The notes beneath the pieces were generated by a model. It worked only from the letters and a program-made list of their open reading frames with translations. It searched no databases and was not told the origin of the DNA. This document shows, in pieces, positions 9,215 through 59,981 of a DNA stretch of 64,000 nucleotides. The stretch is from Candidatus Thorarchaeota archaeon (GTDB taxonomy: Archaea; Asgardarchaeota; Thorarchaeia; Thorarchaeales; Thorarchaeaceae), in contig DXJO01000010.1 in NCBI GenBank assembly GCA_019057475.1, positions 128,001 to 192,000 on the forward strand, in the 5' to 3' direction. The translations under genes and the position numbers were made by a program. Numbering within the stretch: the stretch's first letter is position 1; each line of letters opens with the position of its first letter.

Positions 9215-10348
9215 ATGAGGGTTGCCCATATTTGTCCCTTTGTAGGAGAGCAGATGGGTGGCAGCGAAAGATATGCATGGACTCTCGCGAAGAAACAGGC
9301 GAAAGAATATGACGTTCATGTATACACGACCACTCAAAACGCTAGACGTACAGGAACCATCGAGTCAAATGGTGTGACAATCCACCGATTCTACAGCCCA
9401 ATTGTTGTGTGGAACATCAACCCAATCAGTCTGATGCTTAGGTCACTTGTAAACTCAGATATCGACCTATTTCACATTCATTCGTACCTCTACACACCCT
9501 CGAACCAAGCCGTGTTCGCCAAGATAGTCAAAAAGAAGAAGGCCCTTCTGCAGTTACACGGTGGCATTGGGCTGCCACCGTACAAGACATGCTGGGTCAA
9601 GCTTGCTGCGAAGAAGTTCTATGACGTATCTCTTGGCAAGTTCATGATGAATCATAGCGATATAATCGCATCAGTGTCCAAGTCCGACCTAGATGCAGTC
9701 GAATCCCAGTTCTCTATTCCAAAGGGCCGGCTGCGTTACGTGCCGAATGTCGTAGACACCTCTGTTTTCAAACCCGAAACGAAGCAGCACTCGAATGGAA
9801 GAACACTGCTGTATGTAGGTGATTTGGAGCCCTGGAAAGGCGTTTGTTCACTGATGGAGTGGATGCGTGCTCAGAGTCGGTGGGATGGAGGCAATATCAC
9901 AGTGCGTTTTGTGGGTCAAGGCTCGTTGCTCAGTCGCCTTCGAAAGATGCAGCGTGAGTTTCAGAAAGACAGGCAAGATGTTCGCATTGAGGTCCTGGGC
10001 CCGAAAGACCACAGTGAAATACCTACGCTCATGAGGGACGCTGATGCATTGATACTCCCCTCCTATTGGGAAGGAATGCCAACTGTTGTTCTCGAGGCCA
10101 TGGCGTCTGGAACGCTTGTAATATCGACTCGTGTCGGTAACATACCTAGAATGATTGAACATCTTGGCACGGGCTTGTTGATTGATAGATCAGCTGCCAG
10201 TTTTCAAGAAGCAGTATCCACGGTTCTCTTTGATGTGAAAGCTGTGAGGCGCATCACTGAGAATGCAAGGAAACTGGTTGAGCGGGAGTTCAGTCTTGAC
10301 AAGGCCAACCTGATTCTACATGGTCTATACTCGGAGATGCTGGAGTGA
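9215..10348 (+). CDS. Glycosyltransferase family 4
   Basis: GGSE, VPNVVD, LPSYWEGMPTVVLEAMASG. Confidence 0.92.
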   Translation: MRVAHICPFVGEQMGGSERYAWTLAKKQAKEYDVHVYTTTQNARRTGTIESNGVTIHRFYSPIVVWNINPISLMLRSLVNSDIDLFHIHSYLYTPSNQAVFAKIVKKKKALLQLHGGIGLPPYKTCWVKLAAKKFYDVSLGKFMMNHSDIIASVSKSDLDAVESQFSIPKGRLRYVPNVVDTSVFKPETKQHSNGRTLLYVGDLEPWKGVCSLMEWMRAQSRWDGGNITVRFVGQGSLLSRLRKMQREFQKDRQDVRIEVLGPKDHSEIPTLMRDADALILPSYWEGMPTVVLEAMASGTLVISTRVGNIPRMIEHLGTGLLIDRSAASFQEAVSTVLFDVKAVRRITENARKLVEREFSLDKANLILHGLYSEMLE

Positions 10349-45034: not shown

Positions 45035-45222
45035 CCGTTCATTGTAAGTTGGACAAACTTTGACAGGGAGTCTTTGTCCTCCCAAGAGCGGCACTGGGAA
45101 TATACTCCTTGAGGTCATTTTCCTGTCATTCAACCTCAAGAAACAGTGTCATGATTTGAGCATATAAGGTCGTATTCGAAAATGTCCAATATCATCCAAG
45201 TTTTGAGCAGCTGTCTGCAACC
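45035..45222 (-). mobile_element. Miniature non-autonomous element B sharing both ends with the tnpB element
   Basis: rc 45183-45222 aligns ungapped with tnpB-element left end 57588-57627; rc 45035-45097 matches tnpB-element right end 59860-59919; GG at both junctions. Confidence 0.85.
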
Positions 45223-45505
45223 CTTTGAGTTTATTCAGCTAATAGTCCTAATCCTGACCGTAGTCTTTTTTCTCTTGGCAATCGAGTACCGAAAGCTCTC
45301 ATTTGCAGTGATCGCATTCGCAATTGGCAATGGTTTCCTGAGCCTTACCTTCTTCGCCCTCGGTGCCCCCTTTGTGGCTGTCTTCAACTTCAGCATGTTC
45401 TCAGGCGCCATCGCAATCCTGTTTCTTGCTGCTATGAGTCTTGAGGCGCCAGCAGAGGAGGAATGTCCGGAGGATGATGATTATTGTGAGGTGAGTACCC
45501 AATGA
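45182..45505 (+). CDS. NuoJ-like (N-terminal part)/MnhB-related membrane subunit
   Basis: Three TM helices with L.APFVA...FSGAIAILFL; first gene of the nuoK-L-M-N-like operon. Confidence 0.75.
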   Translation: MSNIIQVLSSCLQPFEFIQLIVLILTVVFFLLAIEYRKLSFAVIAFAIGNGFLSLTFFALGAPFVAVFNFSMFSGAIAILFLAAMSLEAPAEEECPEDDDYCEVSTQ

Positions 45506-45768
45506 AACACAAGATTGCAGCAATCATGCTGTCAGTCATCATGGTACTCTTGATTGGCGTGCAACTCATGGACTTCACCGTTTTTTCCTTGAGCGCACCC
45601 ACAGAACCGCTTCTGAATCCCGCAGATTGGGATATCATAGGTCAAAGGGTTGGTGAGCTGATGTGGTCATACCGCGTGGTTGATGTGTTGATTCAGGTCA
45701 CATTGCTTCTTGCAGCAGTGATTGGTGCCTCAGCAATGTTTCGTTCAATGCGGAAGGAGGAGAACTAA
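45502..45768 (+). CDS. NuoJ-like C-terminal half
   Basis: IG..LM.Y...V.....LLLAAVIGA motif of the NuoJ C-terminus; overlaps upstream stop (ATGA). Confidence 0.7.
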   Translation: MKHKIAAIMLSVIMVLLIGVQLMDFTVFSLSAPTEPLLNPADWDIIGQRVGELMWSYRVVDVLIQVTLLLAAVIGASAMFRSMRKEEN

Positions 45769-45769
45769 G

Positions 45770-46099
45770 ATGTTCGACATGCTTCAAATCTATCTCATCT
45801 TTGCTCTCATCCTCTACGTCTTGGGCATCTATACATTAGCCAGCGCTAGAAATATGGTCAAGCTCGTTATTGGCATCGAGATCTTGGTCGCGGCGGCAAA
45901 CTTGAACTTCCTTGCTCTGGCCGCGTTCACTGCGGGGCCGAATATTCTTGGACCAATCGACCCCACTGTACAGACCTTCGTTATTCTTTCTATCATAGTC
46001 GGTGGAGTAGTAGCAGCAGTGGCCATGAGCCTTATTGTCAACGCTTACCGCCACTACGGGACACTTGACATCCGTGAACTCAGGAGGTTGAGGGAATGA
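45770..46099 (+). CDS. nuoK: NADH-quinone oxidoreductase subunit K / MnhC-like
   Basis: GIY....RNMVKLVIGIEILV.AANLNF, TLDI.ELR.L. Confidence 0.85.
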   Translation: MFDMLQIYLIFALILYVLGIYTLASARNMVKLVIGIEILVAAANLNFLALAAFTAGPNILGPIDPTVQTFVILSIIVGGVVAAVAMSLIVNAYRHYGTLDIRELRRLRE

Positions 46100-48096
46100 T
46101 TCTGCCTCTAGAATTGTTAGGCTGGCTTGTGTTTGTAGTGCCAATAGCTGGTGCCCTCTTCACGCCTGTCTTCGGCAAGATTCACCCCACTCTAAGAGAA
46201 GTCATGGCAGTCCTTGTTGGTTTCATCACCGCCTTTCTTGCTCTTGATATGGTTCTGGACATGCTAATTAGCCCCACCTCAATCGATAACAACCTAATCA
46301 CTTGGGTGATAACGGCTGGAATTGAGGTGGAGTTTGGTGTCCTAATCGACCCTCTCAGTGTCCTGTTGGCCTGCATTGCAGGAGGCATTGGTTCACTAAT
46401 CATCCTCTTCAGCGTGGGATACATGACTGGCCATGATGCCGAAGGAAATGTAGTCAAGGACCCAAGCCTGACCCGGTACTACTTCTTCATGCAATTCTTC
46501 GTTGCAGGAATGATCCTCCTAGTAATGGCGAACAACATGCTCATGACCTTCATTGGCTGGGAAATCGTTGGAATGTGCAGCTACGCGCTCATAGGTTTCT
46601 GGCACAACCTAAAGGAACCCAGTCCGGTGCCGGAGTACAAGACGGAGGGCGAGTACAACGCCGCGAGCGGCATGAAGGCATTCATGGTCACGAGGGTTGG
46701 CGACATCGGCCTGCTTGCAGGAATTCTGCTTCTCTTCTTCATCACGGGCACTTTCAACTACACTGAGATGCTCCAAACCGACGCTTGGGCTGTGGGTCTA
46801 TTCCATCTGTTGCCCATTGTGGCGATACTGATCTTTGCCGGCCCAATTGGCAAGAGTGCGCAGTTCCCCCTTCATATATGGCTGCCAGAGGCGATGGCTG
46901 GACCTACGACGGTCAGTGCGCTCATTCATGCAGCAGCGATGGTTAAAGCGGGGGTCTATCTTGTCGCGAGAATCATCCCCATCTTCCTAGAGGTCATGCA
47001 GACCGTGCCAGAAATGATTGTGTTCTTCCAGACGGTCGCGGCCATTGGTGCGTTCACTGCATTCATGGCGGCCACGATGGCCCTCGTACAGGACGAAATC
47101 AAGAAGGTCCTAGCGTATTCCACGGTTTCACAACTAGGATACATGTTCATGGCGCTCGGTGCGACTGGTCTTGTAGCAGAGAGCGTTTCTGCATATGCCG
47201 CCGGAACTTTTCATCTACTTGCTCACGCTTTGTTCAAGGCTCTACTATTTCTCGCCGCTGGGTCCGTCTTACACGCAGTCCAGAGTAAGAAAATGAGCGA
47301 CATGGGCGGAATCAGAAAGGACATGAAGGTCACTTTTGCAGCATTTACGGTCGGAGCACTCTCATTGGCCGGGGTATTCCCGTTCGTTGGCTTCTGGTCG
47401 AAAGAGCTGATTTTCGAGGCGTTATGGCTTGGTGGGCAGTACATCATCTTCCTCATTGCCTTCATAACGGCCATCCTGACGGCGTTTTACACATTCAGAA
47501 TGGTTGGTATCACGTTCTTTGGCGAGAAGTCCGAGCATATCAAGAGTCTGGAGTCACATGGGCATCATATTCACGAAGCACCTCCAACAATGACGATACC
47601 CCTCATCATACTGGCGGTGCTTGCCGCAACTGGTGGCATCCTTGAGATTGTATTCTTCGGATACTTCTCAGGGCTTGAAACCGGCGCACTCACACACTTC
47701 GATTGGGCACATCTTGCACCGTTTGCTCTGGGGATAACTACGATATTCACAATCGCTGTGTGGCTTGTGGGTATCACTCCAGCATATCTCATCTATTGGA
47801 GGAACAAGTACGACCTGAGCAGGTTCAAAGATGGGTTCCTCTACAAGTTCCTGTGGAATCGATGGTACATCAACGCACTCTGGTACAGAATCTTCGTTGA
47901 TGGTTACCTATGGCTGAGCAATGCAATCCATGCTCGCGTGGAATCCGCGCTGTTGGCGTTCAGTGGCGCCTTGAGCGGTGGCATGGATGGCGTATCGCGT
48001 GGTTGGAGACGTACCATGACTGGTGTGCTCAATACCAATGTATTGGGCATGATGGTTGGTATCATCGCGTTTCTATTGATTCTGATATTCTTGTAG
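46096..48096 (+). CDS. nuoL: Proton-translocating subunit NuoL
   Basis: FIGWEIVG.CSYALIGFW, KAF.VTRVGD, GKSAQFPLH.WLPEAMAGPTTVSALIHAA.MVKAG, HALFKALLFL. Confidence 0.92.
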   Translation: MILPLELLGWLVFVVPIAGALFTPVFGKIHPTLREVMAVLVGFITAFLALDMVLDMLISPTSIDNNLITWVITAGIEVEFGVLIDPLSVLLACIAGGIGSLIILFSVGYMTGHDAEGNVVKDPSLTRYYFFMQFFVAGMILLVMANNMLMTFIGWEIVGMCSYALIGFWHNLKEPSPVPEYKTEGEYNAASGMKAFMVTRVGDIGLLAGILLLFFITGTFNYTEMLQTDAWAVGLFHLLPIVAILIFAGPIGKSAQFPLHIWLPEAMAGPTTVSALIHAAAMVKAGVYLVARIIPIFLEVMQTVPEMIVFFQTVAAIGAFTAFMAATMALVQDEIKKVLAYSTVSQLGYMFMALGATGLVAESVSAYAAGTFHLLAHALFKALLFLAAGSVLHAVQSKKMSDMGGIRKDMKVTFAAFTVGALSLAGVFPFVGFWSKELIFEALWLGGQYIIFLIAFITAILTAFYTFRMVGITFFGEKSEHIKSLESHGHHIHEAPPTMTIPLIILAVLAATGGILEIVFFGYFSGLETGALTHFDWAHLAPFALGITTIFTIAVWLVGITPAYLIYWRNKYDLSRFKDGFLYKFLWNRWYINALWYRIFVDGYLWLSNAIHARVESALLAFSGALSGGMDGVSRGWRRTMTGVLNTNVLGMMVGIIAFLLILIFL

Positions 48097-48108
48097 GAGG
48101 TTGGTGAG

Positions 48109-49644
48109 ATGCAAGGAATAATCGATATCCCCATCCCCTCACACGACCTGATGATTCTCACACTGCTCGGCCTCATCTTCGGTGGACTTCTTGTCATGCT
48201 TGCAGGAAAGTGGTCTGAGAAGGGCGCACAGGCACTTGCAAGTCTTGTTCTACTTGGTGGCCTTGCACTGAACGTATTTCTCCTACTCGGTCCTGAGGTG
48301 TGGAGTGGGGGCGAGGTTCTCTATGAGGTAGTCTGGCTTGGGTCCGCAGATTCCCCAATAATGAACATGGGTTTCAGAGGCGACGGTCTCAGTACACCTA
48401 TTGCCATTCTGGTTCTTGGCTTGGGCCTTTTCTCAATCCTCTTCTCGACGGTCTACATGAAGAATCTGAAGCAGCCTGGTCTGTACTACTCCTTAATGGT
48501 CTGGTTCGTCGCCGCCATGGTGGGGGTAATCTACGCAACGGACCTCATGCAGTTCTTCGTGTTCTACGAGCTGATGCTCATACCTGCTTTCGTCTTGGTA
48601 TACGTCTATGGAGTTTCAGAAGATCCTGTCAAGCGGTCGAAGAACGCCCTTCAGTTCTGGATATGGACTGCCGCAGGCGGGATTGTATCTCTCTTTGCGG
48701 TGTTCATGCTGTTCGGTTACGCTGGCACAATGAGCATCTCGACACTGACGTCAGCATCGATTCCTGTCGAGATTGCAAAGTTCATTGGAATCATCTTTCT
48801 CTTGGGATTCGGCATGAAGCTCGGGCTCGTGCCTTTGCACGTGTGGGCGCCTCCTGTCTATGGTGAAGCGCCCATCCCGGTGCTTATTCTCCTCAGTGGA
48901 GCCATGACCAAGACTGCTGCCTATGGTGTGATTAGAATCGTCATCCCCATTCTATCTGAGGGACTCCGCGGTTACGCCTCTGGTCTGATGGTGATATCTC
49001 TCATCACAATGTTCTACGGCGCAATGATGGCAATCTCCCAAAAGGATCTCAAGATGATGCTTGCTTACTCCAGCATAAGCCAGCTTGGATACTTGATGTT
49101 TGGATACTCGACCATGACCTCCATCGGTGTCAATGGTGCAGCATTCCAGCTGATCAATCACGGGATTCTGGCCAGTCTGACATTCTTCTGTGCGGGTGCC
49201 TTGAAGATGAAGACTGGAACAATGAAATTCGACAAGCTGGGGGGTCTTGCTCCCAAGATGCCCGTACTTGCCACAGTCTACATTATTGGCGCACTCGCTC
49301 TTGCTGGCACTCCACCGATGTCAGCATTCGTGGGCGAGTGGATGATATTCGCCGGTGCAGCTGAACGTACTGCATTGGCCGGAGTTGGCCAGCCATTTTA
49401 CTTGGTCATGACTGTTCTTGCTGTAGTGGCTACGGGTCTTACTGCAGCCTACTACCTCTGGTCCATTAGGCGTATTTTCTTCGGACAAGTTCCGGAAGGT
49501 ATGGAGGACGCCAGGGATTCACCGCGGTTAATCTTGGTAATCACAGGACTGATGGCATTCGTCGTTGTGATTCTAGGCGTTTGGCCATGGATGCTTTGGA
49601 GATTCATAGGTCCGGTTCTGACCGGAGTTGTAGGAGGCGGCTGA
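48109..49644 (+). CDS. nuoM: Proton-translocating subunit NuoM
   Basis: FFVFYELMLIP, KLGLVPLHVW.P, KT.AYG, AYSSISQLG, GEW. Confidence 0.88.
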   Translation: MQGIIDIPIPSHDLMILTLLGLIFGGLLVMLAGKWSEKGAQALASLVLLGGLALNVFLLLGPEVWSGGEVLYEVVWLGSADSPIMNMGFRGDGLSTPIAILVLGLGLFSILFSTVYMKNLKQPGLYYSLMVWFVAAMVGVIYATDLMQFFVFYELMLIPAFVLVYVYGVSEDPVKRSKNALQFWIWTAAGGIVSLFAVFMLFGYAGTMSISTLTSASIPVEIAKFIGIIFLLGFGMKLGLVPLHVWAPPVYGEAPIPVLILLSGAMTKTAAYGVIRIVIPILSEGLRGYASGLMVISLITMFYGAMMAISQKDLKMMLAYSSISQLGYLMFGYSTMTSIGVNGAAFQLINHGILASLTFFCAGALKMKTGTMKFDKLGGLAPKMPVLATVYIIGALALAGTPPMSAFVGEWMIFAGAAERTALAGVGQPFYLVMTVLAVVATGLTAAYYLWSIRRIFFGQVPEGMEDARDSPRLILVITGLMAFVVVILGVWPWMLWRFIGPVLTGVVGGG

Positions 49645-49649
49645 GCTAG

Positions 49650-51209
49650 ATGCAGCTGGATTTCCTGTTCTCTCCTGAGTTTGCGACTGTGATGCCAGTA
49701 CTGATCCCAATCGTCTTTGCGATCTTGGTTGCAGTACTCTCCGAGGGGGTCCGCGTCGCCGTAAAGCGAGTCCCCAAAGGTCTCCCAGACGCTATTGCAG
49801 TCATAGGCTTCGCATTAGCCCTCGTGTACACGTACATGCTTGGAACCGAGGTTTGGGGCAACGGAGTGCACACATTCGTTTTCTCTTGGAGCGGCGGTAA
49901 TTACGTGATGGCCGCAGACGAGTTTTCCGTCTTGATGATGGGACTCTTCACATTCATGGGTCTTGTTGTTGCCTTGTACTCCGTGGGCTACATGAAAAAA
50001 GACACCGGCCTAGCTCAGTACTACATCCTGCTTCTGATCATGGTGGGCGCAATGAACGGAGTCGTGATTTCCACGGACCTGTTCACACTCTACATGTTCT
50101 ACGAGACCATGGGTGTTTGCAGTTTCATCCTTGTGGCTTTCAGAAGGACCTGGGAGGGTATCGAAGCCGCTATCAAGTACCTCATGATGTCTGCGATTGG
50201 GTCGACTCTAGTGCTTATGTCTGCTAGCTACCTTTACGGTCTAACTGGCACGCTCAACCTAGCTCTGATGTCACAGGCATTACAAGCACACCCCGAGAAT
50301 CCTCTTATTCCAATCCTCATTGCCCTACTCACTGCTGGGTTCGCTGTGAAGGGTGCTGTGGTTCCATTTGCAGCATGGCTTGCAGACGCTCATCCAGCGG
50401 CACCAAGTGGCATCAGCGCCATGTTGTCTGCTGTTGTGATCAAGGTTGGCATCTACGGTATCATTCGCATTAACACACTGTTGTTCCCAATTCACACCAT
50501 CTACTTCGACTGGCCGCTATTAATCTCAATCCTAGCCTTAGTGACAATGACCGCCGGCAACTTCTGGGCACTCACACAGAAGGACCTCAAGCGAATGCTG
50601 GCATACAGTTCGATAACTCAGATAGGCTTCATTCTCTTTGCATTCGGAACGGCCACACCATTTGGATATCAGTCCGGAACATTCTACATCGTCGTTCATG
50701 CTCTAACTAAGGGACTCCTATTCCTCTGCGCAGGAGCGTTCCTGCATGCAGTCGGCAGTCGTGATTTGGATGACCTCAAAGGAGTTGGCAAGATGATGCC
50801 TGTGACAGGTGCGTTCTTCGCAATTGGTGTGCTATCTCTCATGGGCATGCCGCCCTTGGCTGGCTTCTACGCGAAGTTCCTGATCCTCGCCGCTGGTGTC
50901 GATGCGGGAATCAACTTCACGGGCTATTACCTGTTGTTCACAGTCGTCGCCCTGTTCAATGCTCTGCTTGGCCTTGGCTACTACCTGAGGATGATAAAGA
51001 CAGTCTGGTTCGAGTCCATGTCCGAGAATGTCAGAAATGCCCATCGTGCTAGTTCTTCAGTCATCTTGGGGATGGGGATTCTTGCAGTCGCCCTTCTGGT
51101 CATAGGTGTGTATCCAGCTCCAATCTACAGTATCGCTGAGGCAGCAGGAACTGCCTTGTTGGACGTCGGTGGTTTCGTCACAGAGATTTTGAGCGCTGGA
51201 ACACCATGA
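49650..51209 (+). CDS. Proton-translocating subunit NuoN/MrpD-like
   Basis: EAAIKY, K...VPF..WL.DAHPAAPS..SA.LS, KRMLAYSSI, PPLAGF.AKF. Confidence 0.88.
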   Translation: MQLDFLFSPEFATVMPVLIPIVFAILVAVLSEGVRVAVKRVPKGLPDAIAVIGFALALVYTYMLGTEVWGNGVHTFVFSWSGGNYVMAADEFSVLMMGLFTFMGLVVALYSVGYMKKDTGLAQYYILLLIMVGAMNGVVISTDLFTLYMFYETMGVCSFILVAFRRTWEGIEAAIKYLMMSAIGSTLVLMSASYLYGLTGTLNLALMSQALQAHPENPLIPILIALLTAGFAVKGAVVPFAAWLADAHPAAPSGISAMLSAVVIKVGIYGIIRINTLLFPIHTIYFDWPLLISILALVTMTAGNFWALTQKDLKRMLAYSSITQIGFILFAFGTATPFGYQSGTFYIVVHALTKGLLFLCAGAFLHAVGSRDLDDLKGVGKMMPVTGAFFAIGVLSLMGMPPLAGFYAKFLILAAGVDAGINFTGYYLLFTVVALFNALLGLGYYLRMIKTVWFESMSENVRNAHRASSSVILGMGILAVALLVIGVYPAPIYSIAEAAGTALLDVGGFVTEILSAGTP

Positions 51210-51234
51210 ACTACTCTTTGAGTCGCAGCCATAG

Positions 51235-51858
51235 TCATCCTATCAATAACACAATGATTGACCTAATTACGAACGTGTAGACAAGATGCAAAATCGTAAC
51301 GAGGAACGAGGCAGCGATGAAGAGCAGTGCATTTGTTCGGGGCTCAGCATCTCTCTTCTTGATAGTCAGGAAGAAGAGCAAGAACAGGAATGATGCCCCA
51401 CCCCAACCGAATGGAACTATTGGCGGCATCTCGTACCAAACAGGTATTGCCTCAGGCGGCCATACCCACCAGCCGGTTTCAGGAGCCCCTGCTGCTATTT
51501 CTACGGGCAACGAGATGAACGCAGTGATGACTGCGGCAGTTAGCAGGATTGCCCAGAGATTATCTTTCCATTTTGGAGCAAATGCTTCAAGGATTCTGTT
51601 TCCAACCACCCAGCTTGCATAGAATGACACAGACCATCCAAACCACATCACCATCGGCGCCGCTCCAATGTAGAACGCATGATCTGGGTAGGAATACATG
51701 CCAGGCATTAGAGCAACAATGTTCTCGCGCACTACTCCAAAGATGAATCCTCCAATGAAGAAAGCGGCCGTTAGCCAATGTTCTCTATGCATCCAGCCAT
51801 GAATGAAGCACAGCAAAGATCCAATCATCACTGCAGCCGTCACTATCTCAGCTAGCAC
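51235..51858 (-). CDS. Membrane protein (carotenoid biosynthesis/CruF-like, tentative)
   Basis: Six TM helices; E...Y.Y, P....GW, E.......WW.W, P.....GW pattern. Confidence 0.6.
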   Translation of the reverse strand: MLAEIVTAAVMIGSLLCFIHGWMHREHWLTAAFFIGGFIFGVVRENIVALMPGMYSYPDHAFYIGAAPMVMWFGWSVSFYASWVVGNRILEAFAPKWKDNLWAILLTAAVITAFISLPVEIAAGAPETGWWVWPPEAIPVWYEMPPIVPFGWGGASFLFLLFFLTIKKRDAEPRTNALLFIAASFLVTILHLVYTFVIRSIIVLLIG

Positions 51859-52033
51859 TCTCTGACCTCCTTAGCTTCAAGACTGCAACAAGCCAAAGCA
51901 CTAACACCAGTGAGAGTGGCACTGCTGAAAGGGCCCGCATCGGGTCTCCAATTATGAACAGATTGACTCCCGTCATTGACAATATCACGCCCAATATCGC
52001 CAAGACTGGGAGAATGTCTTCATGAATCTCCAT
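51848..52033 (-). CDS. Small two-TM membrane protein
   Basis: MEIHEDILPVLAILG...; overlaps the start of the next gene. Confidence 0.55.
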   Translation of the reverse strand: MEIHEDILPVLAILGVILSMTGVNLFIIGDPMRALSAVPLSLVLVLWLVAVLKLRRSESAS

Positions 52034-52066
52034 GTGCAAGACACACCAGTTCTCCATTGATTGGGG

Positions 52067-52346
52067 GGCATGCAACAGCTGCCAAGAACTTGTACAATCC
52101 TGGACATTTTGTAGGTGTTTAAAACATACTGTTCAGGATTGAGTGGTGTGGATGTTCAATGCAGATTGCTAGGACCTCCATGCGATTTGGTCGCCGCCAG
52201 TTGGACGGAGACAGAAAACGCCTGTGGAGAGGACGTGAGACTTGTCGCAGATCCAGTAGGATCTGCAGAGCAGACCTCAATGAATCAGGAACCGAACATC
52301 AGTCAAGGACATTGCTGTCCAAGATTGTGCAAGTTTCGGGCAACGG
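52067..52346 (+). mobile_element. Miniature non-autonomous element C with the same end architecture
   Basis: Left end 52067-52106 and right end 52316-52346 align ungapped with the ends of elements A and B and are imperfect inverted repeats of each other; GG at both junctions. Confidence 0.78.
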
Positions 52347-52351
52347 CGAGT

Positions 52352-53449
52352 CTAAAGGTTTCCTGCTTCCTGGTTTCGTCGAGATTGGGCCGGTCTAATT
52401 AGCTCCCGAATCGTTATCGACATGAATAGCAGGAAACCAATCACGAAGAACGACAGATAACCAAGAACGCTTATGATAGCCGTGATGTCGGGGATGACTG
52501 CCCAGACTAGTATCAAGAGGATAAGCAAACCATACCATCGCTTCAAATCTTTCATTCCTAACAGCTTGGAGTCGGCGCTCGGAATGGACTTGGATTCATC
52601 GACTGGAGGACTTGCATAGATGAGCAATATCACAAAGGCGTAGATGAAGAGAGTAGCGATGATTGTTTCAATACCTGGAATGCGCTCAGGTAGGAGAGTC
52701 GGGAATGTGATTGCGTACAGGAGGACAACGTACGTGCCAGTCAGAGCCAGACCTTTCCTTCCCAATCTCAGTGATTGAATCGAGAACGACCCTCCTCCGC
52801 GCCTTTTGATAAGATAGTACGGGATTAGAATCAGGATAAGGCTGCCAAGCGCTGTAACCCCCGCCACGATGAAATTGTATCCTGAACTAACTGTCATAAA
52901 CAAGGACCCTATGATAAAGGCGTACAGGTATAACACTGAATTCCTTCGACTTCTCTGAAGGAATGAGGTGTGAGTCGGGAAGGTGGTTTCCATTCCCTCA
53001 TTAGACGTGTTGCCAGCTTGAGCTATAATCTGGAATACCAGAATCGGTAGGACGAATGCCATTACTGGGTGCCAGAACATGAGCAGCACGATGTTCTCAG
53101 CAACTGCAAACCCAAAGACCGTGCCAAGAAGAGGTGGATCAGTGAGGTATCCCACCCAGAGAACCTTTGTGACCCACGACTCATAGAGTCCGAATAATAT
53201 TCCCCAGAGATACAGTTGACCCACTGACGTTCTCTTGGATCTCATAGCAAGGTTTAGGAAGAGCAGAGTGTGTGACCAGTAGAGGGGCAGCGTGACAAAC
53301 CAGGCCCACTCGGTGATGAACCAAAGAATGGATGAGCCCGAGAACGCCTCGGCGAACACCATCGACAGGAAGCCGATAAGCACCAACTGAGCCCACCTTG
53401 AATCTGCTGGTTTCTCTGATTCTTGCATGCCCATCCAGATAATTGCCAC
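52352..53449 (-). CDS. Polytopic membrane protein, unknown function
   Basis: About 10 TM helices; FAE..SGS, YE....KVLW, WHP. Confidence 0.75.
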   Translation of the reverse strand: MAIIWMGMQESEKPADSRWAQLVLIGFLSMVFAEAFSGSSILWFITEWAWFVTLPLYWSHTLLFLNLAMRSKRTSVGQLYLWGILFGLYESWVTKVLWVGYLTDPPLLGTVFGFAVAENIVLLMFWHPVMAFVLPILVFQIIAQAGNTSNEGMETTFPTHTSFLQRSRRNSVLYLYAFIIGSLFMTVSSGYNFIVAGVTALGSLILILIPYYLIKRRGGGSFSIQSLRLGRKGLALTGTYVVLLYAITFPTLLPERIPGIETIIATLFIYAFVILLIYASPPVDESKSIPSADSKLLGMKDLKRWYGLLILLILVWAVIPDITAIISVLGYLSFFVIGFLLFMSITIRELIRPAQSRRNQEAGNL

Positions 53450-53524
53450 GCGAATATCTCTTCCTAGAACGAGATGTATTCCAAAGAACTATATCACGTA
53501 CTGGGCGCTCCCGTGTGACCGGAG

Positions 53525-53812
53525 ATGCCTTACTACGTCTACATAATCGAAACAGGGACTGGCACTTACTACACTGGTCAGACTAATGATCTAAAACGAC
53601 GACTGAACGAGCATATGTCCGGGAATTCAAAGTCCGCAGCATACTTTCACATGCATCAGCCCAAGTACCTTGTATACGTGGAAGAATGCAACACCAGAGG
53701 TGATGCTCTTCGTCGTGAGCGTCAGATTAAACGAAATCGACGACTTAAGCTGTTCTTGGTCGGTGACCGACGAGATCTCCAAGGACTCGTGAATTCAGAG
53801 ACCATCTCCTAG
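53525..53812 (+). CDS. GIY-YIG nuclease (UPF0213/YhbQ-like)
   Basis: YYVYI....GTYYTGQTNDLKRRL.EH..G, A.RRE.QIK. Confidence 0.9.
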   Translation: MPYYVYIIETGTGTYYTGQTNDLKRRLNEHMSGNSKSAAYFHMHQPKYLVYVEECNTRGDALRRERQIKRNRRLKLFLVGDRRDLQGLVNSETIS

Positions 53813-53861
53813 GACCGATTAGTTTTCATATCCGGGACATGTTGTTAATGACTGGTGCGCA

Positions 53862-55385
53862 GTGATGACTGAAATAATCTTGGCGTTGGATGTCGGAACC
53901 ACCGGAGTGCGCTCTTTGGTCTTTGACACAGAGGGTGCAGTTCTCGCGCGAGCCTACAAAGAGTTCGAGAGTTCCTATCCCAAGCCCTCCTGGGTGGAGC
54001 AGAATGCGCAAACCTGGTGGGACACTGCCTGCGTAACAACCAAGCAATGCCTCAAAAACCCGGGTGTCAGCGCTGAGAGTATCTGTGGGTTGAGCGTGAC
54101 TAACCAACGTGAAACGGTCGTTCCAATCGACGATGCTGGTAATCCACTACGTAGTGCCATTGTGTGGCAGGACCGTCGAACTGTGCCCCAATGTAACTGG
54201 ATTCGAAATGTCATGTCGCCGGCTGATGTCTATTCAATCACTGGGCTCACCATTGATCCGTACTTCACCGCTCCCAAGATTCTCTGGATAAAGGAGAACG
54301 AGCCTGAGGTCTTCAGAAAGGCTTGGAAGTTTCTCTTGGTTCACGATTTCATGGTCTTCAAGCTCACTGGTAAAACAATTACTGACCATTCCAATGCAAG
54401 CAGAACGATGCTTTTCGACATCAAGAACGCAGGGTGGTCTGAAAAGATGCTCAACGCATTTGACATCCCGCGTGAGAAGCTCCCTGACCCTCTGCAGTCT
54501 GGTACCCCCGCAGGAGAAGTAACTGCGAAGGCAGCCAACGATTGTGGGCTTAAGGAAGGCACTCCTGTGGTTGCGGGAGGCGGAGACCAGCAGTGTGCGG
54601 CGCTAGGAGTGGGTGTGGTTCGCGAGGGCTCAATCAAGTCAACTACAGGAACAGGTACTTTCCTGCTTGCCTACTCTGACACTCCCAGATTCGATAGCAG
54701 AATACGCGTGCTCTGCAGCCGCCATGTTGTCCCGGGCGCCTTTGTTGTGGAGGCAAGCATGTTCACCACGGGCTCAGCTCTCAGGTGGTTTCGCGATAAC
54801 CTTGGTGCGGAGGAGTGCAATCTTGCCAAAGAGCGGGGCGTTGATCCCTATGAGGTCATGTCGGAAGGGGCGGGCGCGATTCCAGCTGGTTCTGAAGGTG
54901 TCATCCACCTGCCGCATTTCGCAGGGGCTGGTGCACCCTACTGGAATCCACACGCGCGTGGTGTGTTTGCCGGTCTTGCCCTTGGCCACACTAGAAAGCA
55001 TCTCATGCGATCTATCTTGGAGGGCGTTTCTTATGAGATTAGAACCAACCTCGAGATCATGAACGATATTGGGATTCCTGCCTCAGAGGTTCGCGTGACT
55101 GGAGGCGCTGCCAGAAGTCAAGTGTGGATGCAGATACAGGCAGATGTGCTTGGAATGCCAGTAATCCGAACCGAGATGGAAGAGGCTACCGCTCTAGGAG
55201 CCGCAATCCTTGCCTGCAAAGGGGTGGGTTTGTTTGACTCGATGGTAGCAGCCGCTGACAGCATGGTGAAACCATTGGATCCACTTAAACCGCAAGAAAC
55301 GAATCGCAACGTCTACGCCGAAGGATTTGCGCGGTTCAAGCAGCTCTATGCTTCAATATCCAACATCGAGTGGCCTAGCCATTAG
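53862..55385 (+). CDS. xylB: FGGY-family carbohydrate kinase (xylulokinase-like)
   Basis: ALDVGTT, WVEQ, NQRET, WQD.R, ASRTML, GGGDQQ, GTG, LEG, GGAARS. Confidence 0.88.
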   Translation: MMTEIILALDVGTTGVRSLVFDTEGAVLARAYKEFESSYPKPSWVEQNAQTWWDTACVTTKQCLKNPGVSAESICGLSVTNQRETVVPIDDAGNPLRSAIVWQDRRTVPQCNWIRNVMSPADVYSITGLTIDPYFTAPKILWIKENEPEVFRKAWKFLLVHDFMVFKLTGKTITDHSNASRTMLFDIKNAGWSEKMLNAFDIPREKLPDPLQSGTPAGEVTAKAANDCGLKEGTPVVAGGGDQQCAALGVGVVREGSIKSTTGTGTFLLAYSDTPRFDSRIRVLCSRHVVPGAFVVEASMFTTGSALRWFRDNLGAEECNLAKERGVDPYEVMSEGAGAIPAGSEGVIHLPHFAGAGAPYWNPHARGVFAGLALGHTRKHLMRSILEGVSYEIRTNLEIMNDIGIPASEVRVTGGAARSQVWMQIQADVLGMPVIRTEMEEATALGAAILACKGVGLFDSMVAAADSMVKPLDPLKPQETNRNVYAEGFARFKQLYASISNIEWPSH

Positions 55386-55594
55386 GTCGAGTAGATAGCT
55401 AGCTTGTTACCCTTGTCCAAGACAAGTATCTTCACGTCTGGATCATTGGATATCCACTCGTCGACTGCAGCTTGTGGGTCCTCCGCCTTGTCCATGTGCG
55501 CTTTTTCTACGGTATCTATGTCGAGATTTGTGAACATCTGAATGCCTCAAAGGACTTCTAAGAGATCAGCGAATTTGTGCGCTTTGTGCTCGTA
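55382..55594 (-). pseudogene. Diverged duplicate of the larA 3' end with an in-frame stop
   Basis: Colinear 212-bp match to 56261-56472; encodes YEHKAHKFADLLEVL*GIQMFT...DKGNKLAIYST*. Confidence 0.9.
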
Positions 55595-55633
55595 GGTCAA
55601 AGGTAGTTCCCTACGTATAGTTATATCGCAGAA

Positions 55634-56167
55634 TTGGTAAATAGACAATGCTTTCCTCAGATGCTTGATACAGAAGGTTATAGAATGAGAGTTTCTGTCT
55701 TGGTTGGATCTCTGGTCATGTTATCCTTGCTAGCTCCCATGACCATTGTTGGTATTGAAAGTCTTGTAGGGATTGGACCACAAACCATGATGGAAGTTTA
55801 CTGGGTCTTCGTCTATGGTACCTATAATTATTCCAATCAGCAGTTTCATTTTCTTGAATTCTACGTATCAGTTTATGTGCTCATGTCACTACTCTGGGTC
55901 TGTATTGGATTGATAATCTCACATGCATTACTCTTTGACAAGTTTCCACAGTCATCAACGAAGGAAGCATGGGTCCTAGGTATGATAGCTCTGGGGGTTC
56001 AATTGACCTCTGCATTTATAGCTCCTCTGTTCCATTTGCAGCCCCCAACCATTCGGACTTTAGCATACTCCATTCCAATCCCCCTTCAGTCCATTTTGTT
56101 GCTTGTCTTTCTAGCATATGATTGGCGTAGTAGACGCCACAGACTACCCAACAATGATCGTTTCTGA
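55634..56167 (+). CDS. Hypothetical membrane protein (islet cargo)
   Basis: Four hydrophobic segments; lies between the two larA 3' ends. Confidence 0.6.
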   Translation: MVNRQCFPQMLDTEGYRMRVSVLVGSLVMLSLLAPMTIVGIESLVGIGPQTMMEVYWVFVYGTYNYSNQQFHFLEFYVSVYVLMSLLWVCIGLIISHALLFDKFPQSSTKEAWVLGMIALGVQLTSAFIAPLFHLQPPTIRTLAYSIPIPLQSILLLVFLAYDWRSRRHRLPNNDRF

Positions 56168-56259
56168 CACGACGTACAACGGTGGTTGGTGGAATGCATT
56201 CATCTTTGCCGCAAATATCGGGGAGCCGACTCCTTTGACTATCAAACGCCCAAGAAATC

Positions 56260-57546
56260 CTAGGTCGAGTAGATAGCTAGCTTGTTGCCCTTGTCCAAAA
56301 CAAGTATCTTCACGTCTGGGTCATTTGATATCCACTCATCGACCACAGCTTGTGGATTCTCCGTCTTGTCTAGGTGAGCCGATTCTACGGTTTCTCTATC
56401 GAGCTCTGTGAACATCTGAATGCTTGAGAGGTTTTTCAGAAGCTCAGCGAACTTGTACGCCTTGTGCTCGTACAGATGATATTTCCCGCTTATCGACTCT
56501 ATCACAGTGTCAAGTGGAGCAGTCAACTTGTTGTAGAAATTCTCCATTGCACTCTCAGGTGCTACACCATCTCTGCACTCAGCAAGAAACAGAATCTCTC
56601 CTCCTTCTGACACTGCATTCTTAGTGAGTTCAAGTGCTCTCTGGGCATGATACAGGCTCTTGTCTTGGGGGTAACCTCCTGGGGACACCACAATGCGTGG
56701 TCTGGCGGTTACAGTGAAGCTTGCCGTTTCATCGAGCACCTTAATGCCATCAGATATCACTGGCTCCATGCGGCCGGCGCCAGCCCACACTACTTTGTCG
56801 CCATTCGATACGGTTGAGAGAGTGAAGATCGTAGCACCCTTGGTTATCATCTCAGCCGCTTCTCTCATGTCATCCGCGAGTGGGTTGGTTCGCCTTGCTG
56901 GGTCTGGGTGGTATGGATGCGTTCCGAAGGTCGACTTGGGGTCAAGTGCCATTGAATGATTGGCTTCGATTGATGCAAACCCGCACACTCCTGGCAAGAA
57001 GTCCTTGAGAGCATTGGAGTATCCACTGAAGTAATGGGCCTTCATATCAGCAAGAGGAACGTACACATTGTGACCGACGGCAGCGGCGTTAACAATGACT
57101 GGCGTACCTCTGCTTGTTTTCCCCAAGTCAGCCATGTCCGGTTCTTGGCAATCATGAATCTTCACTTTGTAGTTCTCAAGCCCGGCATCAGCAGACGCTC
57201 GTTTGATCATGTCCACGATTTCTAGGTTCCCGGGGTGTTCTACTTCGTGTGACCCGGTTGTGACTATGTACTGGATTCTGTGTGCATACTTCAGTTTTGG
57301 GGCAACCGAGCTGAGGAGTGCCCAATGAGGCTCGTCTCTAGTATGGTCCTCCACCAAAACGCAGACACTCCTGCCCTTGACGATATCCGTCAGAGCGGGT
57401 CCGTATGGGTTCGCAAGGACCCTGTTGAGTTCCTCTAGACTATTTTCTGCAGTCCTGGCTTTCTTCGGCGCGACTGTTCCAGCGAGGTTCTTTTCAGGAA
57501 TCTGCAAGTCAACAGTTCCTTCGCCGTAATTTAGAGTCACTTTCAT
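56260..57546 (-). CDS. larA: Nickel-pincer-dependent lactate racemase (LarA) family
   Basis: D.TR, TGSH, G.TSRGTPV, H.FSGYS..K..LPG, NH, SPGGYP.D..LY, AEC.DG. Confidence 0.88.
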   Translation of the reverse strand: MKVTLNYGEGTVDLQIPEKNLAGTVAPKKARTAENSLEELNRVLANPYGPALTDIVKGRSVCVLVEDHTRDEPHWALLSSVAPKLKYAHRIQYIVTTGSHEVEHPGNLEIVDMIKRASADAGLENYKVKIHDCQEPDMADLGKTSRGTPVIVNAAAVGHNVYVPLADMKAHYFSGYSNALKDFLPGVCGFASIEANHSMALDPKSTFGTHPYHPDPARRTNPLADDMREAAEMITKGATIFTLSTVSNGDKVVWAGAGRMEPVISDGIKVLDETASFTVTARPRIVVSPGGYPQDKSLYHAQRALELTKNAVSEGGEILFLAECRDGVAPESAMENFYNKLTAPLDTVIESISGKYHLYEHKAYKFAELLKNLSSIQMFTELDRETVESAHLDKTENPQAVVDEWISNDPDVKILVLDKGNKLAIYST

Positions 57547-57587
57547 CCTGGTTGCCTCAACAACTGGATGGAACAGTCTTTGAAAAG

Positions 57588-59919
57588 GGTTGCCAATAGC
57601 TCCAAGAATCTTGGACAGACTTGGACACTTATTAGATAGTCGTCTGATGAAACACTTTTTGTGGAGTTTGAATTCTATTGCTGTTAGCTATTATAGCCCT
57701 AATTCTGTATGAGTTAATATTCTTCATCTAGGACCACGTTTTGAGGTAGTGGTTGATGAAGTCAGAAAAGCGGCGTCGTCCCCGCTCGTGCAAGACACCC
57801 GAGGCATCGAAACAGAAGACAATGGACGCCAACTATTATGGCTCTTCATCAACTACTTACCTTGTAGAGTCCTTTGCCCTGAACTCCTGTCAACGCGAAG
57901 TAGCACGAAAGGGAAGGGGCAGAGAACCCGACCCCGCGTACAGACGAGACAGGGATAGTTGGACACAGCAGCTAGTCAGTGTAGCAAGAAAGTGTGGGAG
58001 AAAGGTCGACGACATAGACCTAGCGACTCTCACTCTACATTTTGATAACTATGTCAAGGTTGTCAATCTCATCCTCTCACGGATATACCGGACGGATGGC
58101 CGCGCACAGACACTTGGGGAATCACTCTCGAAGTATAGAGGCAGAGCTTACACTCTGCTAAGAGAGCAGAGAGACCTTTGCTATCAACACAATGATGAAT
58201 ACAAAGAACTAGTGTATGAACGACTTCATCGAAATGCGCTTGAGCATGCCGGCAGAACACTGTTGGCTGATTGGACGCGGAGGCAACTCTTCAATGCTGC
58301 GATCAATCTGCTTCACGGGTCACATGATGATGCTCTACGACTTCTGAGAAGAAAGAATATTCCCTCGGACTTGATTCGAAGATTGCGGGACAGTTGCAAT
58401 GCAGTGAAGAAGAATGGTTCCGGATATCATTACGCTCTTAGTGTTCTAAGGCAGATTCGTCTTACTCTTGATAGTCATATTCTAGATACTCTCAGTATCA
58501 AGATCAGTTGGCGTGGAAGACAGAGGAAGAAGGTGTCTTCCTTACTTGCAAAGGGGTCTCCAGACTTTCAGTATGTCGAGAACCTTGTAGAGAACGAGCT
58601 CCGGAGCTGGGCAAAGAATGGATACTCTTTCACCGTCCCGCAACTAAGAAGCCTCAGTCTTGATTTCAGCGCAAGCACTGAGAACTCCATAGGTCAGGGA
58701 TACTGGTTCACTATTGATTCAGAGAGAGAGAATGAGATCATGCTGCACCTTAAGCTTCCTCCGGGGATAGATGGAAGAGAACACAGTGATTCCCCCTACA
58801 AGTCAAAGACCCTGACCTTCAGATTCCTTGACTGGTTGCCAAGAGCTGCGGCAAAAGATGCTGATAAGGCAAACAGAGCTGAGGAGACCGGTGACTATCA
58901 TCGAGGTGACCAGTTGAGGTTCAGAGCTGCAAAGTTCTCAGACATGCATGAACAACTCATGAACACCATTCAGTTCCAGCAGGTGGTTCATAGACTATCA
59001 AGGCTGAAACAAAGGAAGAGGAGTGATTCTACAGAGATTGCAGACCTAGAAGCAAACGCCCAGAGACTCAAGAGCTCCCGACGGAGTGCTCCTCCAAGAC
59101 TTCTCTTGAGAGGGCAGAGGGTCATCCTCCAGATTCCCTTTCTCTCGCCCAACGGTACAGTGAGCTCCAGAGTCCTAGGAGAGAGAGAATACACGACCAA
59201 GGCAGGAGCTGATAGGGGATTAAGAGTACCAGTTGCCCTCTCGGTTGAGAAAGACACCGAGTATGTAGACCTGTACATATCAGTAGAGTCCCTCATTGCG
59301 AAGAGGATGACACTGAGGAAGAATGCGTCGGTCCTACAGTCAGAGGTGGACAGGAGAAGAAACAACTGGGAGCGAAAGCGGCCCGGACAGACTTATCCCC
59401 GGTTCCTCTTCAAGAAGATGAGGCATCTGGAAGCCACATGGAAGAAGGTACGTCGTCTCGACCGCGAGATTGCTCGCATTATTGCATCAAAGACAGTGTG
59501 GTTCTGTGAAGGCCATCGGGTGAAGAAGGTGTTCTTCGAGGACCTGCGGAGCTTCCAAGCTAAAGGTGGTCTTAGGGACCTGTCGTGGTCGCTGAATACG
59601 AACCTGTGGGGAAAGATCATCGACACGGTCAGATACATGCGAGAGTCTCTTGGTCACTCACCCTATAGTGTGTGGACTGTGAACCCGCGGTACACTAGCC
59701 AGACATGCCATGTCTGTGGCGAGAGAGGTGTCAGGGTTGAGAATGAAACCTCGAAGACAAAGAAGAAGGGAGGAGAGTACTTCTATTGCGAAAAGTGTGG
59801 TTCTCATTTTCACGCTGATATAAACGCAGCAAGAAACATAATTCATGTTCAACCAAGATCCAGTGCCGTTCCTGGACGGACAGCTTGATGTCCAAGTTTG
59901 TCCAAATTACAATGAACGA
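57588..59919 (+). mobile_element. Element A: IS607-like, transposase-less element carrying a giant TnpB-like nuclease
   Basis: Inverted TTGGACA-N3-TTGGACA ends (57611-57627 / 59889-59905, 16/17 match); ends shared with elements B and C. Confidence 0.82.
57753..59888 (+). CDS. tnpB: RNA-guided RuvC nuclease, TnpB/Cas12f-like, 711 aa
   Basis: RuvC-I GADRG, RuvC-II FFEDL, VNPRYTSQTCHVCG...CEKCG zinc ribbon, RuvC-III HADINAARNI. Confidence 0.9.
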   Translation: MMKSEKRRRPRSCKTPEASKQKTMDANYYGSSSTTYLVESFALNSCQREVARKGRGREPDPAYRRDRDSWTQQLVSVARKCGRKVDDIDLATLTLHFDNYVKVVNLILSRIYRTDGRAQTLGESLSKYRGRAYTLLREQRDLCYQHNDEYKELVYERLHRNALEHAGRTLLADWTRRQLFNAAINLLHGSHDDALRLLRRKNIPSDLIRRLRDSCNAVKKNGSGYHYALSVLRQIRLTLDSHILDTLSIKISWRGRQRKKVSSLLAKGSPDFQYVENLVENELRSWAKNGYSFTVPQLRSLSLDFSASTENSIGQGYWFTIDSERENEIMLHLKLPPGIDGREHSDSPYKSKTLTFRFLDWLPRAAAKDADKANRAEETGDYHRGDQLRFRAAKFSDMHEQLMNTIQFQQVVHRLSRLKQRKRSDSTEIADLEANAQRLKSSRRSAPPRLLLRGQRVILQIPFLSPNGTVSSRVLGEREYTTKAGADRGLRVPVALSVEKDTEYVDLYISVESLIAKRMTLRKNASVLQSEVDRRRNNWERKRPGQTYPRFLFKKMRHLEATWKKVRRLDREIARIIASKTVWFCEGHRVKKVFFEDLRSFQAKGGLRDLSWSLNTNLWGKIIDTVRYMRESLGHSPYSVWTVNPRYTSQTCHVCGERGVRVENETSKTKKKGGEYFYCEKCGSHFHADINAARNIIHVQPRSSAVPGRTA

Positions 59920-59940
59920 TATCAGTTTTGGTGTATCACT
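59859..59940 (+). ncRNA. Predicted omega-RNA 3' scaffold (to ~59919) plus flank-derived guide
   Basis: Block conserved in element B; hairpins TCCAG/CTGGA and GGACA/TGTCC; loop CGTTC complementary to terminal GAACG. The 5' start is not determinable. Confidence 0.6.
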
Positions 59941-59981
59941 TGTGCAGAATGCTTATCCGTTCTTGATGTTACAGCAGAAGC

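Follow-up and report, generated by a model that had tools for sequence, protein, structure and literature searches.

Probable IS607-family transposons with two TnpB lineages and protein-less miniature copies in a Thorarchaeota genome

The stretch of DNA analysed here (64 000 nt, hereafter the window) corresponds to C42:128001-192000, a part of one contig of a 3.34-Mb, 56-contig Thorarchaeota genome, the nearest protein relatives of which are labelled Candidatus Thorarchaeota. Three elements with common ends, A, B and C, lie within it (Table 1). Element A encodes an oversized TnpB of 710 amino acids (aa), and B and C are protein-less and of the size of MITEs (transposable elements of the miniature inverted-repeat type). 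With a probability of about 0.85, we consider A, B and C to be non-autonomous members of one IS607-family transposon group. The evidence consists of the common ends and their number in the genome, the empty sites found in relatives, a serine transposase gene located behind the same left end elsewhere in the genome, and the TnpB and guide-RNA-like sequences that the elements carry. The assembly is fragmented, and each species used for comparison is represented by a single genome.

The six end sequences quoted for A, B and C in a first-pass annotation, which had been made from the letters alone, were all recovered where it had placed them. Between positions 44000 and 61000 the longest three inverted repeats are B-left/A-left, B-right/A-right (93% over 30 nt) and B-left/C-left. 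nhmmer profiles were built on the three left and three right ends; they recover the window copies at E = 2e-11 to 6e-9 and, with cut-offs of E ≤ 0.001 (left) and E ≤ 0.01 (right), detect 41 left and 49 right ends genome-wide. The first-pass annotation had argued that three copies in 15 kb imply many genome-wide, and the profile scan bears this out. The right-end tips are of two types, 18 being A/B-like and 30 C-like, and the two right tips, taken as 11-mers, are present in 21 and 24 places, against an expectation of ~1.6. Paired copies measure 187–189 bp (B type) or 279–284 bp (C type), to which are added one 1338-bp element and A itself. Contigs break at these repeats (29 of the 112 contig ends stop ≤330 bp from such an element end), so that the copy numbers are lower bounds. 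Copies of the C and B types are also present in same-genus genomes, and A-type right ends were found in many genera of the same family and in none of 13 searched genomes of other families.

Each end carries two 7-bp motifs 10 bp apart, the first of them 24 bp from the left tip or 15 bp from the right tip. The left junctions (marked by a slash) read AG/GG in A and B and GG/GG in C, and the right ends terminate in AAC-GG, the exception being A with AAC-GA. A left end of A starting with GGG rather than GG was considered and excluded, as five A-type left ends in relatives start with GG and have a flanking G at position -1.

Empty sites in relatives, which the first-pass annotation had proposed to look for, were found for all three elements. 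The B site is empty in four same-genus genomes (G001, G004, G005 and G006), which read ...CACAA-CC-NTTTGAG, and the window has CC at both B junctions. The C site is empty in two of them (G006 and G004), with ...TGCAG-GG-CGAGTC, and the window has GG at both C junctions. For A, no more than ~33–45 bp separate the larA-like flank from the downstream one in five same-genus genomes. One paralogous empty site of a B-type copy, on contig C40, presents the same single-core picture; when the joined flanks of 23 paired copies were compared with the genome, no empty site other than this one was detected. An exact-sequence look-up of the flanking proteins returned only the contig of the same strain, with A present, or nothing. 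Independent metagenome contigs from cold-seep and marine-sediment samples skip B (186 bp, contigs in 3 runs) and C (~282 bp); metagenome depth over C is 10–20 times that of its flanks, many different flanks are seen at 52066 and 52346, and loose ends occur at 59916-59918, the right end of A. The single core dinucleotide in the empty alleles and the metagenome evidence together establish that A, B and C are mobile and that their insertion duplicates just a 2-bp core, in agreement with the earlier claim that there is no duplication beyond the GG core. All three window insertions are younger than the split from the same-genus species.

The motifs lie in intergenic or 5' regions together with TATA-like boxes, and could for that reason be taken for host transcription-factor operators held at fixed positions, an outcome that the first-pass annotation had named as fatal to the transposon idea. 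The precise empty alleles in relatives at all three sites already refute this, since the motif pairs are not at fixed orthologous positions in all relatives; dozens of copies in unrelated contexts and the many different flanks on metagenome contigs point the same way, and we regard operators as having practically no chance of being the right explanation. A second alternative would be classical inverted-repeat MITEs moved by a DDE transposase, the mirrored GACA-type motifs being its inverted repeats. It has in its favour that the left and right subterminal motifs are indeed mutual reverse complements, but the outer tips (14–23 bp) of the left and right ends are not inverted repeats of each other, four empty-site comparisons reveal no target duplication beyond the 2-bp core, and the protein-coding elements with these ends all carry a serine tnpA and/or tnpB and none a DDE gene. 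This alternative appears very improbable.

The junctions of A are atypical: the left one is GG but the right one GA, and the empty allele of the relatives has GA there. Mismatched cores have been described for another member of the IS607 family, CboIStron of Clostridium botulinum, in which the left junction takes the donor dinucleotide (bioRxiv 10.1101/2023.11.20.567912), and the junctions of A fit this behaviour. In addition, the 31–37 bp adjoining A on its right are inverted in comparison with all five relatives and one metagenome contig. The corresponding block of the empty allele is bounded by GGA and TCC, and an 'opposite strands' joint, 59918>59958, is present in an independent metagenome. 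A recombinase-driven flip between oppositely oriented cores is an attractive but unproven explanation for this inversion; the far end of the inverted block does not match a clean inversion.

There is no transposase in the window, as had been noted at first pass, and neither a resolvase nor a Y1 transposase on the contig from which it comes. Elsewhere in the genome, two loci (on C53 and C19) encode a resolvase domain. On C53 a matching left end is followed by an open reading frame (ORF) with HTH_17/MerR and Resolvase domains, which scores 141.7 bits against the NCBIfam model NF033518 'IS607 family transposase' (cut-off 110). Thus, the same-ended element with a MerR-type helix-turn-helix (HTH) serine TnpA that the first-pass annotation had suggested searching for exists on C53, and also in several relatives. 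In G005, G013, G014, G037, G039 and G040, tnpA is located behind matching left ends that are built alike: GG is followed by an ACAGCT block, a pair of GACA-type motifs with a 10-bp spacing and, ~27 nt ahead of the tnpA ATG, a TATA-like TGATTAG or TTATTAG. Open tnpA genes of 197–216 aa are present in relatives, among them a 216-aa gene on G005:C145 and genes of 204–206 aa on G013:C18, and in one case (G014:C1, locus L057) the order is compact, namely left end, tnpA, tnpB and right end.

These data also bear on the possibility that the elements are of the IS200/IS605 type (PATEs), with a Y1 transposase moving them in single-stranded form. It is true that tnpB occurs in that family too and that the left flank is a fixed short motif here, like the target sites of IS605. 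However, a search for the Y1 transposase (PF01797) in the genome, which is 96% complete, gave no match, each junction has the core dinucleotide, of which the empty site has a single copy, and the same-ended tnpA is a serine recombinase. We consider this possibility even more remote than a DDE transposase. The assignment to an IS607-like family made at first pass therefore holds, on the basis of the same-ended MerR-HTH serine tnpA, the GG core and the lack of a Y1 transposase.

The C53 element (L003:669-9294) is 8.6 kb long and consists of a left end, tnpA, a gene of ~1800 aa on the opposite strand, a 763-aa tnpB and a right end; elements of this kind are also found on C54 (L005) and on G013:C18 (L055 and L056). 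For the 1822-aa passenger protein, neither Pfam nor NCBIfam nor Atlas provided a lead. The passenger gene is kept in the same position, at 25–48% identity, in another genus, and this conservation of position across genera argues for cargo and not for a chance insertion. The left tip of the C53 element (L003:669-685) differs from those of its G005 orthologs and repeats ~13 bp located just beyond its own right end (9291-9305). The C19 locus (L004:1883-5393) is a second IS607-like pair with different ends, in which a 207-aa resolvase-domain protein stands beside a 707-aa protein with a faint TNB match.

In the first-pass annotation B and C were both regarded as miniatures of the giant-TnpB element. 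This has to be modified for C, the parent of which has a conventional 404-aa TnpB, and qualified for B, which has only its terminal ~63 nt in common with giant-TnpB elements. The parent of C is a 1338-bp element with C-type ends (C18:13644-14981); its 404-aa TnpB scores 342.8 bits against NCBIfam IS607_TnpB, and the genome holds four such 404-aa-type TnpB genes. C itself is made of the first ~115 bp of this parent (left end, TATA-like box and first codons) and its last ~171 bp. In the latter part, RAGATH-18 (RF03064), the family to which the guide RNA of a characterized IS607 TnpB has been traced, matches over the full length of the model, though below the gathering score, with 25.4 bits for C and 26.2 and 25.6 bits for C-type copies of two relatives. 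The conserved RAGATH-18 segments CCUGUGGAG and AUGAA..CAGGAA are present. The C-type copies are 88–93% identical among themselves. Among the genomic C-type copies, nucleotide diversity (pi) is lowest in the RAGATH-18-like segment (0.054), intermediate in the left part (0.11–0.15) and highest in the left transposase motifs (0.21). The low variation of the RAGATH-18-like segment is suggestive, though not proof, of selection on the scaffold.

The B-type copies are more heterogeneous (median identity 66%). The last ~63 nt of B are 79–81% identical to the 3' ends of giant-TnpB elements, and an Rfam scan of B returned nothing credible. Two hairpins with compensatory changes are found in the B-type MITEs, and one of them recurs, conserved, at the 3' end of giant tnpB genes from eight genomes. 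The nuoJ-like gene interrupted by B heads an Mrp/Nuo-like operon. An ATG inside the left end of B (45182) is in frame with the nuoJ-like gene and would swap its first four residues for a 13-residue leader. The idea that B acts as a promoter of this gene was dropped, since the TATA-like box, ~17 nt from the new ATG, does not agree with archaeal spacing.

The TnpB of element A could be aligned over its full length with more than 100 homologues of ~700–720 aa, nearly all of them from Thorarchaeota. It contains the Pfam TNB domain PF07282 (9.8e-16), and its match to NCBIfam guided_TnpB is confined to residues 483–697. The catalytic triad is intact: D487, E596 and D689 (RuvC-I D, RuvC-II E and RuvC-III D), as well as the zinc-finger residues C652, C655, C679 and C682, are invariant in 36 homologues. 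Against 1.8 billion cluster representatives, the N-terminal 480 residues match just a handful of clusters, whereas the C-terminal RuvC/TNB part matches ordinary TnpBs. The AlphaFold2 model (predicted local distance difference test score, pLDDT, 76) has a disordered and basic segment (1–88), a helical domain (90–300) and, from ~315 on, a complete TnpB core that matches Cas12f/TnpB structures (Foldseek E down to 3.5e-9). The protein is thus a complete TnpB core with a lineage-specific N-terminal extension of ~310 aa. The helical domain (210 residues) reached a pLDDT of 90 when folded alone; Foldseek found no match to the isolated N-terminal domain in PDB at E ≤ 0.001. Its best neighbours according to VIA-align are N-terminal REC-type regions of Cas12-lambda, Cas12l, Cas12k, Cas12m and Fanzor2, with Z values (5.7–6.9) that are in the chance range for helical bundles.

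An RNAalifold analysis of 10 giant-TnpB 3' ends from 8 genomes revealed a closing pair that covaries (UA/CG/GC); an Rfam scan of the 3' end of A returned nothing credible and no RAGATH-18. Orthologs of A tnpB with 93% identity are located at a different site, common to both, in two relatives (L010 on G005:C17 and L011 on G006:C107). The G005 copy, without an A-type left end, looks like a decayed, fixed copy. The genome also contains four TnpB-like genes outside both subfamilies (C9:22325, C18:47630, C42:35620 and C54:74875), with open frames of ~570–600 aa. The features of the window are summarized in Table 1; the ORF listed for A tnpB begins one codon earlier than the ATG given there, at TTG. 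A 212-nt direct repeat (55383-55594 and 56261-56472, 84% identity) occurs once at the larA-like gene's 3' end and once just after the FGGY kinase gene.

Table 1. Coordinates of elements A, B and C and of their parts in the window
Feature	Position	Strand	Basis
Element A, non-autonomous, IS607-type (2332 bp): left end, 710-aa tnpB and right end, without tnpA	57588..59919	+	Shared ends; site empty in 5 same-genus genomes
Left end of A: GG core, conserved AGCT block, two TTGGACA motifs spaced 10 bp (first 24 bp from tip), then TATA-like TTATTAG	57588..57640	+	Profiles; layout also upstream of tnpA in relatives
A tnpB, 710 aa, ATG at 57756; core at residues ~315-710 plus N-terminal extension	57756..59888	+	Pfam, NCBIfam, AlphaFold2
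Hairpin (59859-59876) and GGAC/GTCC stem across stop codon and inner right-end motif; candidate 3' part of guide-RNA scaffold	59859..59903	+	RNAalifold covariation
Right end of A: two TGTCCAA motifs spaced 10 bp, 12-nt spacer, terminal GA (GG in every other copy)	59889..59919	+	End profiles
Host flank inverted relative to five relatives, beginning exactly at right junction of A	59920..59955	.	Comparison with relatives; metagenome joint
Element B, 188-bp protein-less MITE of giant-TnpB lineage, after codon 4 of nuoJ-like gene	45035..45222	-	Ends; empty sites in G001, G004, G005, G006
Element C, 280-bp MITE of conventional-TnpB subfamily: 115-bp left end/promoter part and 171-bp 3' part	52067..52346	+	Empty sites in G006, G004; parent C18:13644-14981
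RAGATH-18-like core of IS607 TnpB guide-RNA scaffold, within C	52221..52291	+	Rfam RF03064, 25.4 bits (below gathering score 44.9)

Several observations weigh against the assignment of A, B and C to one IS607-family group, or sit uneasily with it: (i) the motif pairs of the two ends are mutual reverse complements, as is evident from cross-hits of the profiles, yet IS607 is described as having no terminal inverted repeats, (ii) the 31–37-bp inversion beside A is not accounted for by simple insertion, (iii) the RAGATH-18 scores are below the gathering score (44.9), and A and B are without any Rfam match, (iv) B may carry an incomplete scaffold, given how little it has in common with the giant-TnpB 3' ends and (v) the sole family-matching tnpA in the assembly, that of C53, is frameshifted after ~residue 160, as in its G005:C84 ortholog. 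The frameshift costs the C53 tnpA its conserved C-terminal helix region, and present-day mobility in this strain is therefore unproven.

This last point leads to the most serious alternative, namely that in this strain the elements have become fossils that no longer move, that a past TnpA made the swarm and that the copies persist by inertia or by TnpB-driven retention alone. The frameshift speaks for it, as do the divergence of the copies (within the C type and, to a greater extent, the B type) and the fact that variation among the C-type copies peaks in the region of the transposase-binding motifs. On the other hand, the three window insertions post-date the split from the same-genus species, close relatives have intact tnpA genes, and the many contig ends that stop in repeats mean that further, possibly intact, copies may be unassembled. 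We rate this alternative a little short of even odds.

The sequence preference at the insertion sites was derived from the flanks of all ends found in the genome. On the left (n = 41) there is a G at position -1 in 37 cases, an A at -2 in 30 and a purine at -3 in 33; on the right (n = 49) position +1 is a pyrimidine in 44. The left junction had been given as NGGG at first pass. Its G-rich character is retained, but the logo is RAGGG (RAG/GG/Y), in which the preference of the transposase and the target-adjacent motif (TAM) of TnpB are not separable from the flanks alone.

A mechanism that would be consistent with these data is as follows: (i) a MerR-HTH serine TnpA encoded elsewhere would bind the 10-bp-phased GACA-type motifs near both ends, (ii) the same protein would cut the element out in the form of a double-stranded circle, (iii) integration would take place by a crossover at the 2-bp core, normally GG, leaving one copy of the core at each junction and no further duplication, (iv) the copies would be transcribed through their right end to give a scaffold with ...ACGG at its end and, after it, a guide whose sequence comes from the flank and (v) a TnpB acting in cis or in trans would cleave the empty donor joint, made of RAGGG and the target, and thereby make retention of the element more likely. 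Binding by the transposase, the circle, transcription, the use of guides and the TAM are inferences, the last two steps of the scheme being modelled on characterized IS607 and IS605 elements. The logo and the right ends in AAC-GG have a parallel in CboIStron: there, both the TnpA target and the TnpB TAM are TGGG, the scaffold ends in UCGG, and the C third from the scaffold end guards the element against self-cleavage (bioRxiv 10.1101/2023.11.20.567912). The same self-protection logic would apply here, with AGGG against ACGG.

One transposase family appears to be used by two or more TnpB lineages as well as by the protein-less elements derived from them. The pattern of variation in the MITEs, with the guide-scaffold part least variable and the transposase-binding part most variable, hints that RNA-guided retention, and not transposition alone, shapes the swarm. 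A more far-reaching proposal, which we find rather doubtful, would be that the MITEs are promoter-bearing stand-alone guide-RNA cassettes maintained by selection, and that each provides a TnpB from another locus (of the 710-aa or the 404-aa type) with a guide to the site where the cassette itself lies. In that case the genome would contain a dispersed trans-acting multi-guide system, and the 710-aa TnpB with its REC-like domain would be a transposon-borne intermediate on the way from TnpB towards Cas12-sized effectors.

Comparison with known systems places the elements closest to the IS607 family (IS607 of H. pylori, IS1535, ISC1926 and the serine TnpA of the C. botulinum IStron), in which a MerR-type HTH is N-terminal to the serine-recombinase domain and an accessory tnpB lies downstream (PMC6188088; bioRxiv 10.1101/2023.11.20.567912). 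Also the same are the GG core, which stands at each junction and singly in the target, without target duplication, the subterminal motifs phased by ~10 bp and starting ~20 bp from the tip (~24 bp in IS1535; PMC6188088), the G-rich target and (here predicted) TAM and the right end, and with it the scaffold, in ...CGG. What differs here is the Asgard host, the TnpB of one subfamily (710 aa versus ~390–430 aa), the mirrored motif pairs, the ~1800-aa passenger of some copies and the protein-less derivatives, which outnumber the coding copies. Rare cargo has been noted in serine-recombinase-associated TnpB elements (PMC10691335).

With respect to guide RNA, the C-type subfamily is similar to ISFba1, the IS607-type TnpB of which uses a RAGATH-18-derived guide RNA (PMC11061315): in both, a TnpB of ~400 aa is associated with a RAGATH-18-like core that is flanked by ~45 and ~55 nt and ends at the right tip, a size that the 171-nt 3' part of C matches, and the purine-rich TAM of ISFba1 (AGGAG; PMC11061315) resembles the RAGGG flank found here. 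In contrast to ISFba1, the match here amounts to only 25–26 bits, which is below the gathering score, A and B have no RAGATH-18 similarity, and the scaffold overlaps the last ~140 nt of tnpB, that of ISFba1 being outside the coding sequence. PATEs, which are IS200/IS605 derivatives encoding omega RNAs but no protein (bioRxiv 10.1101/2023.03.14.532601), are likewise miniature and non-autonomous, keep their ends and guide-RNA region and need TnpA and TnpB in trans; they differ in being moved by Y1 on single strands and in having hairpin ends, as opposed to a serine recombinase acting on double-stranded DNA and a GG core.

The 710-aa TnpB was compared with Cas12f, Cas12-lambda, Cas12k and Fanzor2. 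The core fold of residues ~315–710 is like that of Cas12f/TnpB, and the extra helical domain is nearest to REC-type regions, at a Z that does not exceed chance level. It differs from the compact Cas12 effectors in that no CRISPR array or cas genes accompany it and its gene lies between transposon ends. With its confidently folded helical domain, this TnpB of ~710 aa is a candidate for studies of TnpB-to-Cas12 growth and for genome-editing screens. A literature search found no paper naming both 'TnpB' and 'Thorarchaeota'. The system constitutes a naturally documented Asgard case of IS607, in which exact empty and filled alleles confirm the scar-free GG-core chemistry outside bacteria. The IS607 mechanism being already known, what is new is the combination: the host is an Asgard archaeon, the 710-aa TnpB has an extra domain, two or more TnpB lineages use the same end architecture, and the MITEs that bear scaffolds form a large swarm.

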